This document shows, one piece after another, positions 6,001 to 12,000 of a stretch of DNA of 64,000 nt (position 1 is the stretch's first letter; each line of letters starts with the position of its first letter). The DNA comes from a virus. Lineage: Duplodnaviria > Heunggongvirae > Uroviricota > Caudoviricetes. The stretch is taken from IMG/VR virus record IMGVR_UViG_2721755646_000011. The stretch is one strand, 5' to 3'. Made by a program: the position numbers.

Positions 6001-9000
6001 CTTGCAGGCGCATCGCGCGACCTTCAGGAACCAGTTCCCCCCATTGAGAAACAGCAGATGGATCAACACCAGCAGCTTTCGCTACTTTGGCTTTCGTCCC
6101 ATAAAAATTAATTACGTCTGATTTAAACATCACCCCTCCAAAGTTGAGTTTTCTCAATAGTAATCACTCAAGGAATCTCAAGTCAAGGGTGATTAAGATA
6201 TCTAAATATGAACGAGAAAACTTTAGGTCAACGAATTAGAGAAAGACGCAAACAGGTTGGTTTAAGTCAAAACGATTTAAGCAAAGCCGCTGGCGTATCT
6301 GGCTCATCAATTTCACTATGGGAAAGCGACCATACAGCCCCGCGCGGGCAAAATTTGCATCGCCTGGCTGAGGTATTGCAATGTTCACCAACTTGGATAC
6401 TGTTTGGTGACGAGGATAAAACACCAGATCCACCAGTTGCACTCAACAGCGCCTTAGACTTATCGGAAGATGAGTTGGAGATGTTGCGATTGTATCGCGC
6501 ACTTCCAAAATCAGAGCAGCAAGCACAAATCAGCGAACTCCGTGCCCGCGTTGAGAATTTTAATCGCCTATTCACCGAGCTACTAGAAGCTCGCAAACGT
6601 AACAAACATCAGTAACCCCCTTCACAAATTTTAAAGCCTTACATTTCAATGTATTGGCTTTATTTTGCATTAAATATTGAGTTTTCTCATTAAAAATACT
6701 TGACCAACATTCATGAGAAAACTAAATTACCACCCATCAAGACACCGCACGGTGTTCTCAGCAAACAGTTCCGCTACCCGGCGTTAAGGGGAAATGAGGT
6801 CAGCATGGATACTATCGATCTTGGCAACAGCGAATCTCTGGTATGTGGCGTGTTCCCCAACCAGGACGGCACGTTCACCGCGATGACGTATACCAAAAGC
6901 AAAACGTTTAAAACCGAAAATGGTGCCCGTCGCTGGCTGGAAAGAAACTCAGGTGAGTGATATGGATTTCGACACAATCATGGAAAAGGCTTATGAAGAA
7001 TACTTCGAAGGTCTTGCCGACGGCGAAGAAGCTCTCAGCTTCAACGAATTTAAACAGGCGCTTTCCAGCTCGGCAAAATCTAACGGCTGATAAGCGAAAC
7101 AGCACCGCGAGGAATCAGTATGCAGAAACGAGAACCCGTCATCATCGCACCAGACTATACCGATGATGAACTTTATGAGTGGATGCGCCAGAAAATTAAT
7201 GCAGCGCAGGATCTGAAATGGGCCAATGAAGCCAGGGCTAAGCAGGCTGAAAAACTGTCCGCTCTGGAGCAGGATATCACCAATCTGGAAAAAGCAGCGG
7301 CATTAAGCATTGCCAGAATGATTACATACCCGCGTTAATAGCTAACCAACGAAGCTAAGGTTGGTAATTAAGTAGTTCTCCACGGGTGAGGTGGAGTGCG
7401 TGCGCCGGACGCGGGTGAGCATCCGGCACTGACAGTTTACTGAAAGGATATTTCCCTGAAAAGTCAGACCATAACGCGAAAGCGCACGGCGAGGTAGCTG
7501 GTTCATAGATAGCCTGTCGTTAAATTTTCGTCGACCGTGCGCTTCCGGTTGTGGCAACCCGCGAAATGGTGCGGCGGTAAGTATGGCGGGGTTATTTCTT
7601 CCCCGTTGAGGACACCGGGTTGTCAGGTTGACCATACGCTTAAGTGACAACCCCGCTGCAACGCCTTCTGTTATCAATTTTCTGGTGACGTTTGGCGGTA
7701 TCAGTTTTACTCCGTGACTGCTCTGCCGCCCTTTTTAAAGTGAATTTTGTGATGTGGTGAATGCGGCTGAGCGCACGCGGAACAGTTAAAGCTAAAAACA
7801 GCGTTATGGGTGATTCTGTATTCCGGCGTTAATTGTTAACTGGTTAACGTCACCTGGAGGCACCAGGCACCACATCACAAAATTCATTGTTGAGGACGCG
7901 ATAATGGAAACGTCACTACCAAACGTTAATACGTCTGAAGGGTGTTTTAATATTGGTATTCTGCTCAGTAACCGGGAGTTTACTGAAGACGCCATCAGGA
8001 TGAGAAAATATGAGCCTTATCTTCTCAATGATAATTCCATACTCTCCAGAATTGCCCTTCTTGAACTTGGCATTTTCGGAGGGCAGCAGTGAGTTCAGCG
8101 TTTGCACTGATGATGACGGTTTTTCTTATAACAGGTGAGCCACAGAATGTGATTACCGGAATTTATGCCAGTAAAGAATCCTGCCATCAGGCAAGAGACG
8201 AGCAAAAAATTTCCGGTGAATGTCTCCCGTTAAACAAAGTATCGCTGTACCTGAATAACGAAATACCGGCTGGATAACCCGCCAGCCGTATTAACGCCAT
8301 ACCCGTTGATTAAGCATGCCAGCAATGGCAGGGATTCGTACAACCTTAAAATAGTTATGAGGTTTATCAATGAGCACTGATAAAGAAGAAATTGCACTGT
8401 ATTACGAAGCCAAAAATGACAAAGTCAGAAAACGCCTTGGGATTAAAGGCGGTTTTTACTGGCGCACAGCAAAAAAATTATCGGTTGCAATATCACGGGG
8501 TGTTGTCGCAATGGACGATGCTGGATTTGACGAAGAGGATTTCAAAAAACCTGTTCGCGTGAATTTGCCCATTGTTAATGACCTGCCGCCTGAAGGTGTG
8601 TTCGATACTGAATTCTGCAACCGCTATGAAAAAGGCGGGGAAGATGGCATCACAATGATATTTATAGCGCCTTCCCCCTCAGTTCAGGACAAACCAGCCA
8701 GCTCTGACAATACCAACGTCAATGGCGAAGACATGGCTGAGATTGAGGATAATATGCTCCTGCCGATTTCCGGTCAGGAACTGCCCATTCGCTGGCTTGC
8801 GCAACATGGCAGCGAAAAACCGGTAACGCACGTTTCACGGGAAGAACTTCAGGCATTACATATCGCACGAGCTGAAGAACTGCCTGCTGTTACTGCCCTG
8901 GCTATTTCCCACAACACAAAGCTGCTCGACCCGCTGGAGATTCGCGACCTTCACAAACTGGTACGCGACACAGACAAAGTTTTCCCTAATCCCGTTAATT

Positions 9001-12000
9001 CCAGTCTGGGGTTAATGACTGCTTTTTTCGAAGCATACCTGGACGCTGACTATACCGATCGAGGTCTGCTGACAAAAGAGTGGATGAAAGGAAATCGTGT
9101 TTTACGCATCAGCCGCACGCCATCCGGCGCTAATGCTGGCGGAGGAATTCTTACCGATCGCGGTGAAGGTTTTGTCCACGATGATGCGTCAGTAGAACGT
9201 GACGTTGCCGCTGGCGTTCTGGCCCGTTCAATGGACATCGATATTTACAATCCACATCCGGCACACGCCAAACGCATTGAAGAAATCGTTTCAGAGAATA
9301 AGCCGCCCTTTTCTGTTTTTCGTGACAAATTCATCGCCATGCCTGGTCACCTGGATTATTCCCGCGCGATAGTGGTTGCGTCCGTGAAAGAAGCACCAAT
9401 TGGTATCGAGGCTACTCCCCACCGTGTTACCGAATATCTGAACAAAGTACTGACCGAAACCGACCATGCCAACCCTGATCCAGAAATCGTGGATATTGCC
9501 TGCGGTCGCTCCTCTGCTCCAATGCCGCAGCGTGTAACAAAAGAAGGAAAACAGGATGATGAAGAAAAACCGCAGCCATCTGGCGCAATGGCAGATGAAC
9601 AGGCAACGACTGAAGCAGTGGAACCGGATACAACTGAACATAATCAGGACACGCAGTCGATGGATGCTCAGCCACAGATAAATTCTGTTGATGCGAAATA
9701 TCAGAAACTGCGGGCAGAACTCCATGAAGCCCGGAAAAACATTCCGCCCCAAAATCCTGTCGATGCAGACAAATTACTGGCTGCCTCTCGCGGAGAATTT
9801 GTTGAAGGGATTAGCGACCCGAATGATCCGAAATGGATTAAGGGGATCCAGACCCGCGATTCTGTGTACCAGAATCAGCCAGAAACGGAACAGAACGACC
9901 AGAAAGCGGAACAGAACAGCCCAAATACGCAACAAAACGAGCCAGAAACGAAACAACCTGAACCAGTAGTGCAACAGGAACCGGAAAAGATCTGCACCGC
10001 CTGCGGTCAGAGGAGTGGCGGCAACTGCCCTGATTGTGGCGCGGTGATGGGCGACGCAACATACCAGGAAACATTCGATGACAAGAACCTGGTTGAAGTT
10101 CAGGAAGACGATTCGGAGAAAATGGAAGGCGCTGAACATCCACACAAGGAGAATGCTGGCAGCGCTCAGGACCACGCCAGCGATAGTGAAACTGGCGAGA
10201 CGGCAGATCCCTTAATTACGGTGAACGGTCATCGCATTATCACATCCACCAGCAGGACGTGTGACCATCTAATGATCGACCTTGAAACCATGGGAAAAAA
10301 TCCTGATGCCCCGATTATCTCAATAGGTGCAATATTTTTCGATCCGCAAACCGGAGATATGGGACCGGAATTTAGTAAGACTATCGATCTGGAAACTGCT
10401 GGCGGAGTCATTGATCGGGACACCATTAAATGGTGGCTTAAGCAATCACGCGAAGCGCAATCTGCCATTATGACCGATGAAATCCCGTTAGATGATGCAC
10501 TGTTACAATTGCGGGAATTTATCGACGAAAACTCCGGTGAATTTTTTGTTCAGGTCTGGGGAAATGGAGCCAACTTCGACAACACGATTTTGCGCCGTTC
10601 ATACGAACGGCAGGGGATCCCCTGCCCGTGGCGTTACTACAACGATCGCGATGTACGCACAATCGTTGAGCTGGGGAAAGCCATAGACTTCGATGCCAGA
10701 ACTGCTATCCCATTCGAAGGTGAGCGCCACAATGCGCTGGATGACGCTCGTTACCAGGCAAAATACGTTTCAGCTATCTGGCAAAAACTGATCCCGAATC
10801 AGGCTGATTTTTAATGTTCAACCCCGGTCGTTGCCCACCAGCTATAGTGGCGGCGACCATGATTAGCGAACGACGCTCATGGCAAGACTTATTCTGCTCA
10901 CTGAGTGGGCAAAAGAGGAATTCAGTGAACCGGTCCCTACTCCGAGTACGTTAAGTAAATACGCTAAAGCCGGAATGATATTTCCTCTCCCCAAAAAAGT
11001 TGGAAGACGCTGGCGAGTGGATCCGCAAGCTCGCTTTGTCGGAATGGTAAACAAGCCGGAGGTGATCGCCACAGATCACCCTGCTTTGAAGAGGATACTG
11101 GAAGATGGCGCGCCCGCGAAAATATAAAACCGATGTTCCGGGATTATCTCCGTATTTTGACAAAAGAAATAACAAAGTTTACTGGCGTTACAGGCATCCC
11201 ATAACAGGCAAAAATCACGGTCTCGGCAGTATTGACCAGAAACTGGCAGAAACTATTGCAGCAGAAGCGAACAGCCGTCTTGCCCGGCAGCAAATGGAAC
11301 AAATGCTCAGTCTGCAGGAGAAAATTATTAGTGATACCGGCGGTTCATCAACCGTTACCATTTTTCTGAATAATTACAGAAAAATTCAACAGGAAAGATA
11401 TGAAAACGGCGAGATCAAACTCAACACGCTGAAACAGAAAGCGGCCCCTCTCAGGGTATTTGATGAACGTTTTGGCACCAGACCGTTAGATGCCATAACC
11501 GTAAAAGATGTGGTATCAGTACTGGAAGAGTACAAGGCCAGAGGACATAACAGAATGGGACAAATTTTCAGGAAAGTACTGATCGATGTTTTCCGGGAAG
11601 CTCAGCAAACGGGCGATGTCCCGCCAGGCTTTAACCCTGCAGAATCTGCAAAAAAACCGCAGGTGCGGATATCAAGACAGCGACTGACTTTTGATGAGTG
11701 GATGATGATTTATAACGCAGCGGAAAAGGATGGTTACTTTTTACAGCGCGGTATGCTGCTGGCACTGATGACAGGCCAGCGCCTTTCAGATATTTGCAAA
11801 ATGCAATTTTCGGATATCCGGGATGGTTATCTTCATGTCGAACAGCAAAAAACAGGAACCCGGATTGCCATCCCTCTGGCTCTGCGTTGCGATAAATTAA
11901 ATCTCACCCTGGATGATGTGGTGTCATCCTGCCGCGATTGCGTTCTTAGTCCGTGGCTATTGCACCACCATCACGCGAAAGGGACAGCTAAGCGCGGCGG

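Follow-up and report, generated by a model that had tools for sequence, protein, structure and literature searches.

The stretch of DNA analyzed here (hereafter, the window) comprises 64,000 nucleotides of a Caudoviricetes virus, IMG/VR record IMGVR_UViG_2721755646_000011. ORF calling identified in it an 814-codon open reading frame (ORF) with an ATG start at 8370..10814 on the + strand. The product is probably a functional chimera, in which about 617 residues of the non-catalytic part of RecE are followed by a DEDDh domain of the T4 DexA/Rv2179c type; its sequence predicts an exonuclease that would digest DNA ends in the 3'-5' direction rather than a recombinase of the RecET type. The gene belongs to the leftward early operon of a lambdoid prophage of the Rac/Qin kind, carried by an E. 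coli genome of the O157 type. Its product is identical to RefSeq protein WP_000102168.1, where it is named "exonuclease"; NCBI names copies and fragments of it inconsistently as "RecE family exodeoxyribonuclease," "3'-5' exoribonuclease," and "exonuclease." Our literature search retrieved no paper describing a fusion of the RecE N-terminal region to a DEDDh domain as such. The novelty is modest: the parts are known, the protein is already annotated, and DnaQ-type nucleases encoded next to the integrase gene were noted in 2025. Current ideas are not overturned.

Domain composition of the chimeric protein

The gene and its parts, with positions in the window, are as follows.

8370..10814, + strand: whole gene, 814-residue chimeric exonuclease (ORF; identical RefSeq protein)
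8370..9539, + strand: residues 1-390, conserved RecE N-terminal region (PF06630 at 56-189; ratio of nonsynonymous to synonymous substitution rates, dN/dS, 0.24-0.32)
9540..9992, + strand: residues 391-541, acidic Q/E/P-rich region of low complexity, also in Rac RecE
9993..10037, + strand: residues 542-556, zinc ribbon CxxC-x7-CxxC (C542, C545, C553, C556), a weak DZR match, conserved in Rac RecE (C517..C531 region)
10038..10220, + strand: residues 557-617, acidic linker and last RecE-homologous segment, under weak selection (dN/dS 0.42-0.73)
10221..10265, + strand: residues 618-632, junction segment, disordered in the AlphaFold model
10266..10781, + strand: residues 633-804, DEDDh 3'-5' exonuclease domain, PF16473 (Rv2179c/DexA family)

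Residues 58-617 align with residues 50-592 of RecE from the K-12 Rac prophage at 75% identity in BLASTP, and there is no alignment beyond residue 617. Pfam places PF06630 (Exonuc_VIII) at residues 56-189 (E = 4e-34), and the NCBIfam RecE equivalog model NF007259 aligns its positions 1-603 of 877 to residues 1-617, with a score of 1093 bits that lies below the curated cutoff of 1269 bits. At the DNA level, identity to Rac recE is 83% over 8708-10216 and ends abruptly at nucleotide 10216. Rac RecE itself consists of PF06630 and a PDDEXK domain (PF12684) at residues 615-850, a nuclease domain whose crystal structure is known (PDB 3H4R, RecE residues 606-866); neither PF12684 nor 3H4R gave a match in the 814-residue protein. 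Because recE homology stops at 10216 and PF12684 starts at residue 615 of Rac RecE, the swap lies exactly at the boundary of the RecE nuclease domain. No solved structure was matched by a profile of the RecE N-terminal region.

A preliminary description, made from the sequence alone, had recognized the resemblance of the N-terminal ~600 residues to RecE and the DEDDh motifs in place of the RecE nuclease, and had proposed a domain search, a structure prediction, and a comparison with Rac RecE as checks. All three agree with it: the N-terminal similarity is supported and stops at residue 617, the C-terminus is assigned to PF16473 and not to the RecE nuclease family, and residues 618-814 are modeled as a DEDDh fold with a DexA-like best match. 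It had also noted a zinc ribbon and an acidic Q/E/P-rich linker between the two parts. Both are there, but they fall inside the segment homologous to RecE and also occur in Rac RecE; thus, they are inherited RecE features, and we rejected them as markers of the fusion point. Compared with Rac RecE, the linker has a 14-residue insertion (residues ~509-522, window 9894-9935) within Q/E/P-rich repeats of the PETEQN/PETKQP kind, which suggests a repeat expansion.

The C-terminal DEDDh domain

The C-terminal part matches PF16473 over the full length of the model (profile positions 2-177 of 177; E = 2e-67; 226.7 bits against a gathering cutoff of 27). Its five catalytic residues, aligned with the DexA catalytic residues listed in PMC12153337, are:

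10278-10280, + strand: D637, in the DxE of DLET, aligned with DexA D7
10284-10286, + strand: E639, in the DxE of DLET, aligned with DexA E9
10578-10580, + strand: D737, in FDN, aligned with DexA D119
10728-10730, + strand: H787, in H-x4-D, aligned with DexA H186
10743-10745, + strand: D792, in H-x4-D, aligned with DexA D191

All five are invariant across 58 homologs. The AlphaFold model of residues 618-814, built with a 58-sequence alignment, has a predicted local distance difference test (pLDDT) score of 88 and a predicted template modeling (pTM) score of 0.85. Its best Foldseek match in the PDB is T4 DexA (8KEL/8KEN; E = 1.5e-11; TM 0.73), followed by RNase T, REXO2/oligoribonuclease (Orn), a DnaQ domain, and Cap18, and none of the PDB matches has a PDDEXK fold; a sequence search of solved structures returned DexA 8KEL and 8KEN only. 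We assign the modeled domain with confidence to the DEDDh (DnaQ/RNase T-like) fold, and a Mg-dependent 3'-5' exonuclease is the activity to be expected from its sequence. The preliminary description had called the polarity unclear; since the family members are T4 DexA, EcD, Rv2179c, and RNase T, a 3'-5' polarity can be predicted.

Family membership also raises the possibility of an RNA substrate, namely that the protein is an Rv2179c-like exoribonuclease acting on RNA 3' ends, for example those of phage or host transcripts. PF16473 takes its name from the Rv2179c 3'-5' exoribonuclease, the model closely resembles RNase T, Orn, and REXO2 in structure, and many NCBI copies bear the name "3'-5' exoribonuclease." However, the characterized proteins most closely related to it, DexA and EcD, both act on DNA as exonucleases (PMC12153337), its scaffold derives from a DNA enzyme and carries a zinc ribbon, and the operon is a context of DNA transactions. 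We therefore regard this explanation as improbable.

EcD, an E. coli homolog of DexA, points to another explanation. The 2025 Nucleic Acids Research paper that solved the T4 DexA structure reported the activity of stand-alone EcD on T4 as "HREX": EcD degrades T4 DNA and protects cells (PMC12153337). By analogy, the chimeric protein could be a prophage-encoded anti-phage nuclease that degrades the modified (5-hydroxymethylcytosine [5hmC]-type) DNA of invading T-even phages and so protects the lysogen. Its best structural match and its best sequence match in the PDB are both T4 DexA, and its C-terminal domain (residues 635-814) is 38% identical to an EcD-like ORF that also belongs to PF16473. 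The EcD accession (HAK9828821.1) was not found by cluster look-up, and this ORF was recovered from IMG/VR with the primers given in the supplement of PMC12153337; it has 189 residues, starts with MIDTET, and has A78 as described, and its identification as EcD rests on the 5' primer, A78, and a 3' primer that matches save for one base.

On the other hand, 38% is a low identity, and the residue said to read 5hmC, W152 in DexA and also W in the EcD-like ORF, is Y757 here. Two other DexA positions are less easily compared: the equivalent of D169, likewise proposed to read 5hmC, falls in a poorly aligned loop, and the region of D90, the tetramer-forming aspartate that is A78 in EcD, corresponds to D709-A710, where a shift of one residue decides which of the two is aligned. 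EcD has nothing that corresponds to the long RecE scaffold, the PADLOC library gives a generic DEDDh match with no assignment to a defense system, and the EcD-like gene resides in a different kind of integrative element. The position of the gene speaks against this explanation as well: it is the last of the early left operon, a slot expected to be silent in a lysogen, and a promoter and terminator scan gave nothing above shuffled expectation and no convincing promoter of its own. All in all, an anti-phage nuclease of this type seems unlikely.

In five loci (L101, L111, L114, L117, and L096), the EcD-like exonuclease gene is located ~3 kb from an oppositely oriented integrase gene, among small genes and upstream of an 840-residue ORF. 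This layout is more suggestive of a satellite or P4-like element than of a lambdoid early left operon.

Distribution of the architecture

Identical DNA is present in many chromosomes of E. coli O157:H7 and other Shiga toxin-producing E. coli. At least 80% of the gene was found in 1251 of 5426 complete E. coli genomes; genomes with any match typically have two matching places and may have up to 9. A homolog search with the N-terminal 617 residues retrieved only identical fragments at contig ends; diversity came from a HMMER search of 1.84 billion cluster representatives, which gave 11,753 matches, the best 150 of which were classified. Among these 150, the representatives of 50%-identity clusters that have the RecE N-terminal region and at least 500 residues comprise 14 with a DEDDh domain, 11 with a PDDEXK domain, and 16 with neither recognizable; as judged by these assignments, the scaffold carries the two nucleases about equally often.

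Seven proteins with the RecE N-terminal region and 680-814 residues (P0294, P0301, P0308, P0328, P0332, P0352, and P0402) have no C-terminal nuclease that Pfam recognizes. "RecE-2" proteins that lack the nuclease domain have been described (PMC12315714), and these seven may belong to that class or may carry an unrecognized third type of catalytic head. In yet another protein (P0295, 703 residues), residues 1-527 of the RecE N-terminal region are joined directly to the RecT domain (PF03837), which looks like a deletion that fused recE to recT.

A scan of one genome per species yielded 80 loci. Long forms of 641-851 residues, with the DEDDh domain at the extreme C-terminus, were found in 28 of them, from about 12 enterobacterial genera (Escherichia, Enterobacter, Dryocola, Buttiauxella, Pluralibacter, Klebsiella, Scandinavium, Atlantibacter, Kluyvera, Citrobacter, Phytobacter, and Kosakonia), whereas 49 of the 80 loci have stand-alone forms of 182-257 residues, which range more widely and add Salmonella, Serratia, Erwinia, Photorhabdus, Aeromonas, Vibrio, and Pseudoalteromonas. 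Most long forms are 25-38% identical to residues ~29-390 and share three strongly conserved motifs across genera: PxxxDLPxEGxxD..WCxRYE (~61-86), RGLLxKEWxxGNRVxxIxRTxSGxNAGGGxxTDR (231-264), and PGxLDYSRA (~325-333). A few, such as the 823-residue Escherichia forms, have a different extreme N-terminus. All 28 long-form genes are directly followed by an excisionase gene and/or an integrase gene, with three integrase families represented, and the stand-alone forms fill the same integrase-proximal slot.

Five contigs labeled Veillonella (L015), Geobacteraceae (L036), Actinomycetes (L053), Chryseobacterium (L077), and Streptomyces (L087) carry an exonuclease of the enterobacterial type, the domain of which is 97% identical to that of the window in L015 and 53-61% identical in the other four. 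These labels are probably binning or contamination artifacts.

The fusion junction

Similarity to stand-alone exonuclease genes starts between 10221 and 10272 (residues 618-635), and a segment similar to residues 618-632 occurs in a 239-residue Klebsiella form (P0088); the junction segment therefore belongs to the exonuclease module. Taken together, these alignments place the fusion point at residue 617/618 and define residues 618-632 as the true junction. A free exonuclease domain made from an internal start at M635 is not supported, because the only candidate ribosome-binding site ahead of it is an AGGA 15 nucleotides upstream, which is too distant. Two Chi octamers are found at or near the domain:

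10246..10253, - strand: Chi octamer (GCTGGTGG on the - strand), within the 15-codon junction, 30 nucleotides past the end of recE homology
10835..10842, - strand: second Chi octamer, in the exonuclease gene-xis spacer

A Chi site is again found within ~1-11 codons of the start of the domain in long forms of Escherichia, Buttiauxella/Dryocola, and Atlantibacter; the loci noted for it are L014, L015, L016, L019, L020, L023, and L032. The junction Chi might be a recombination hotspot favoring the exchange of the catalytic head or just part of a conserved S-T-S coding motif; its recurrence may reflect selection, the conserved peptide, or chance.

Lack of an annealase partner

The early left operon of the window prophage (6208..8277 upstream of the exonuclease gene) and the genes that follow the exonuclease gene are:

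6208-6615, + strand: cI-like repressor
6700-6960, + strand: DUF1391, not an annealase
7120-7338, + strand: ydfC-like, not an annealase
7904-8092, + strand: dicB, not an annealase
8089-8277, + strand: DUF1482, not an annealase
10879..11127, + strand: excisionase (xis), PF07825, first gene after the exonuclease gene
11105..12235, + strand: lambda-type integrase (int), Arm-DNA-binding domain and PF00589, at the prophage end

The order is thus repressor, DUF1391, ydfC-like, dicB, DUF1482, exonuclease, xis, int. As the preliminary description had stated, no recT/bet-like gene follows the exonuclease gene, which is succeeded by xis and int. No ORF longer than ~110 residues separates the exonuclease gene from the repressor gene, none of the operon genes encodes an annealase, and the window as a whole has no homolog of RecT or of the RecE nuclease. 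The same was seen beyond the window. Upstream of the 28 long-form genes, in a stretch that takes in the entire early left operon and immunity region and the beginning of the replication genes, Pfam assigned none of 134 ORFs of at least 100 residues to RecT, Erf, Rad52, or another annealase family; the families found there include repressors, YdaS/YdaT, DnaT-like, and DnaC-like proteins. A complete sister prophage, integrated at ompW in strain PV15-279 (L120 1003-46133), is 99% identical to window 3145-12399, and its annotation lists only RusA and this exonuclease, with neither an annealase nor Gam. Since the 28 loci, the window, and the sister prophage all lack an annealase partner, its absence is a general property of the long form.

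In a RecET/Red-type system the annealase gene is adjacent, and here xis and int come next instead. Moreover, a 3'-5' exonuclease would produce no 3' tails for an annealase of the RecT/Beta type. Because such tails and such a partner would both be missing, the protein should not be viewed as half of a RecET/Red-type recombinase, and the label "recombination nuclease" in the preliminary description is not justified: none of the 28 loci has an adjacent annealase gene, and a 2025 Genome Research survey of 314 lambdoid phages, which notes DnaQ-like 3'-5' nucleases, explicitly kept the integrase-proximal ones out of the Rec module (PMC12315714).

It could still be argued that the protein is a RecE analog of reversed polarity that finds its annealase in trans, in another prophage or in host RecA/RecFOR. 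The whole RecE scaffold is retained; prophages are numerous in O157 genomes, which can have as many as 9 matching places each; a minority of stand-alone homologs have an ERF, Rad52-like, Sak4-like, or single-stranded DNA-binding protein gene within three genes; and T4 DexA is reported to participate in the repair of double-strand breaks when introns home (PMC12153337). However, digestion from 3' to 5' destroys the very tails that RecT/Beta and RecA use, and neither the long-form operons, the window, nor the annotation of the sister prophage supplies a partner. Together with the survey's placement of such nucleases outside the Rec module, these findings make the trans-acting arrangement improbable too.

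Selection, mosaicism, and broken copies

Is the fusion an accident? In Rac the gene order is recE-recT-ralR-rcbA-xis-int and in the window prophage it is exo-xis-int in the same slot, as if the recE nuclease domain, recT, and their neighbors had been deleted and a functionless relic had been left by a chance in-frame fusion. Some copies are frameshifted, and the fusion of the RecE N-terminal region to RecT in P0295 is of the deletion type. We consider this explanation very improbable. All five catalytic residues are intact, the architecture persists at 25-38% N-terminal identity across ~12 genera and in 14 separate 50%-identity clusters, and dN/dS is well below 1 in both folded parts.

We calculated dN/dS by the Nei-Gojobori method against three sequences, an 813-residue homolog in phage record vB_EcoS-640R1 (L012), Rac RecE, and an E. 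coli short form. Against L012, it is 0.32 for residues 58-390, 0.24 for residues 391-540, 0.73 for residues 541-617, and 0.20 for the exonuclease domain; the folded N-terminal region gave 0.24 against Rac RecE, and the exonuclease domain gave 0.16 against the short form. Values of 0.16-0.32 indicate purifying selection in both folded parts, and selection on the linker appears relaxed, as expected for a disordered tether.

The L012 homolog (4001-6442) is intact, and its comparison with the window gene is uneven: the C-terminal domains are 98% identical, whereas residues 58-390 are just 67% identical. The ompW prophages of other strains (L013) have only the last ~345 codons in common with the window gene. 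These comparisons indicate recombination breakpoints inside the gene, which makes it a mosaic. Broken copies exist as well: PPompW_EH1846 has a pseudogene, and in L004 (737-3127) the gene is split, with a 183-residue exonuclease ORF following ORFs of 456 and 157 residues, ~797 codons in all. At least some of the short entries from E. coli probably represent fragments of a long gene that has been split and whose N-terminus is different, and this layout weakens the view, which we had considered, that all 183-residue "stand-alone" entries from E. coli are true short genes.

Chi sites and the proposed role

The prophages that carry the long form are rich in Chi sites of one orientation. On the prophage side of the 28 loci (221 kb), 99 Chi sites lie on the strand opposite to the exonuclease gene and 12 on the same strand, whereas the chromosomal flanks (84 kb) have 16 on both strands, or ~1 per 10 kb per strand. 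In the sister prophage, the sense strand of the late genes has 12 and the other strand 3, against ~1.2 per strand expected from base composition. Enteric stand-alone loci have the same bias (110 versus 3). The first 9.1 kb of Rac in K-12, the integrase-proximal end that carries recET, has no Chi site. Lambdoid phages without a Rec module or an anti-RecBCD function are known to be rich in Chi and are proposed to make use of RecBCD (PMC12315714).

Loading of RecBCD requires DNA ends that are nearly blunt, and host 3' exonucleases help by trimming. From its position, the gene would be expressed from the leftward early transcript after induction or infection, as its recET counterparts in Rac occupy the same slot and are silent in lysogens. 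The DEDDh domain would then be the catalytic head that removes nucleotides from DNA ends in the 3'-5' direction, and the RecE scaffold a delivery or tethering module to which the head is joined through the long acidic linker and the zinc ribbon. We tentatively and only weakly favor a role in which the enzyme trims 3' tails, which would give host RecBCD entry and allow it to act at Chi, because it is carried by a type of prophage that has neither annealase nor Gam and is packed with correctly oriented Chi sites. The main alternative is a DexA/EcD-like degradation of DNA, whether of the host or of a rival phage; even with the two targets combined, we consider it possible but somewhat doubtful. 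An RNA substrate, recombination with an annealase in trans, and a relic are each less likely than either of these.

Several considerations weigh against the exonuclease function and the RecBCD role proposed here. The substrate, be it DNA or RNA, single- or double-stranded, is unreadable from the sequence, and Rv2179c, the founding member of the family, is named an exoribonuclease. Single-strand exonucleases of 3'-5' polarity usually inhibit recombination rather than promote it (quoted in PMC12315714). Co-occurrence with Chi richness is the sole basis of the RecBCD role, and Chi richness tracks the absence of anti-RecBCD genes in general; stand-alone exonuclease loci have it, too. The timing of expression is read from gene position, the promoter scan being uninformative. 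Finally, since some copies are broken, the gene is dispensable for prophage maintenance.

A broader and rather unlikely extension is that the N-terminal two thirds of RecE are an autonomous delivery platform, directed to a DNA end or a host factor, that is fitted with a nuclease of either polarity according to the recombination strategy of the phage. With a PDDEXK 5'-3' head and RecT, such a platform would serve self-sufficient single-strand annealing; with a DEDDh head, in Chi-rich phages that lack Gam and an annealase, it would blunt 3'-tailed ends for RecBCD loading. The exchange of heads could have been promoted by the junction-segment Chi present in several lineages.

RecE is a mainstay of recombineering; what its first ~600 residues do is unknown, and the region is dispensable for RecT-dependent recombination (PMC11611040). 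The occurrence of this scaffold with a nuclease of opposite polarity and without an annealase implies that its function must be independent of RecT and of the polarity of resection. The version with the DEDDh domain accompanies Chi-rich prophages devoid of their own recombination genes. Because the protein is very common in pathogenic E. coli and its prophage class is proposed to depend on RecBCD and Chi, it is a candidate factor in prophage induction, Stx-phage biology, and conflict between phages.

Other features of the window

Just past the integrase end of the prophage, at 13535-14185 on the - strand, there is a gene for a type III secretion effector of the NleG family (PF06416, E = 9e-45), and a second integrase-like gene is located at 23542-24426. 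An oppositely oriented second lambdoid prophage occupies ~27000-64000, and parts of the ompW-type prophage match its tail, lysis, and early regions at 76-95% identity. The window prophage is a mosaic, since window 1-3145 and the sister prophage of strain PV15-279 differ.

Comparison with known systems

The closest known relative of the N-terminal part is Rac RecE (exonuclease VIII) of K-12, with which the chimeric protein shares PF06630, the acidic Q/E/P-rich region, the zinc ribbon, and the slot in the early left operon. It differs in that a DEDDh domain replaces the C-terminal PDDEXK 5'-3' nuclease and in that recT, ralR, and rcbA do not follow downstream.

With T4 DexA (exonuclease A; 8KEL/8KEN), it shares PF16473 and the DEDDh catalytic set, but identity is only ~28%, and the window protein carries the RecE scaffold, whereas DexA is a stand-alone protein of 227 residues with extra loops and a dimer/tetramer switch, from a virulent phage with 5hmC DNA (PMC12153337). 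EcD is, likewise, a PF16473 member from an E. coli mobile element with conserved DEDDh residues; unlike the window protein, it stands alone, in a different genomic context, and has W rather than Y at the position of DexA W152.

Rv2179c of Mycobacterium tuberculosis, RNase T, oligoribonuclease, and DnaQ-fold exonucleases of the ExoX/ExoI type share the DEDDh fold and chemistry; they are only 15-22% identical in structural alignments and are cellular housekeeping enzymes, several of them RNA-specific. The catalytic domain is much closer (58-65% identical) to the stand-alone DnaQ-type exonucleases of 180-260 residues encoded next to int (e.g., Salmonella P0105; PMC12315714). These occupy the same slot directly upstream of xis-int in Chi-rich prophages and differ from the window protein in having no 617-residue N-terminal extension derived from RecE.

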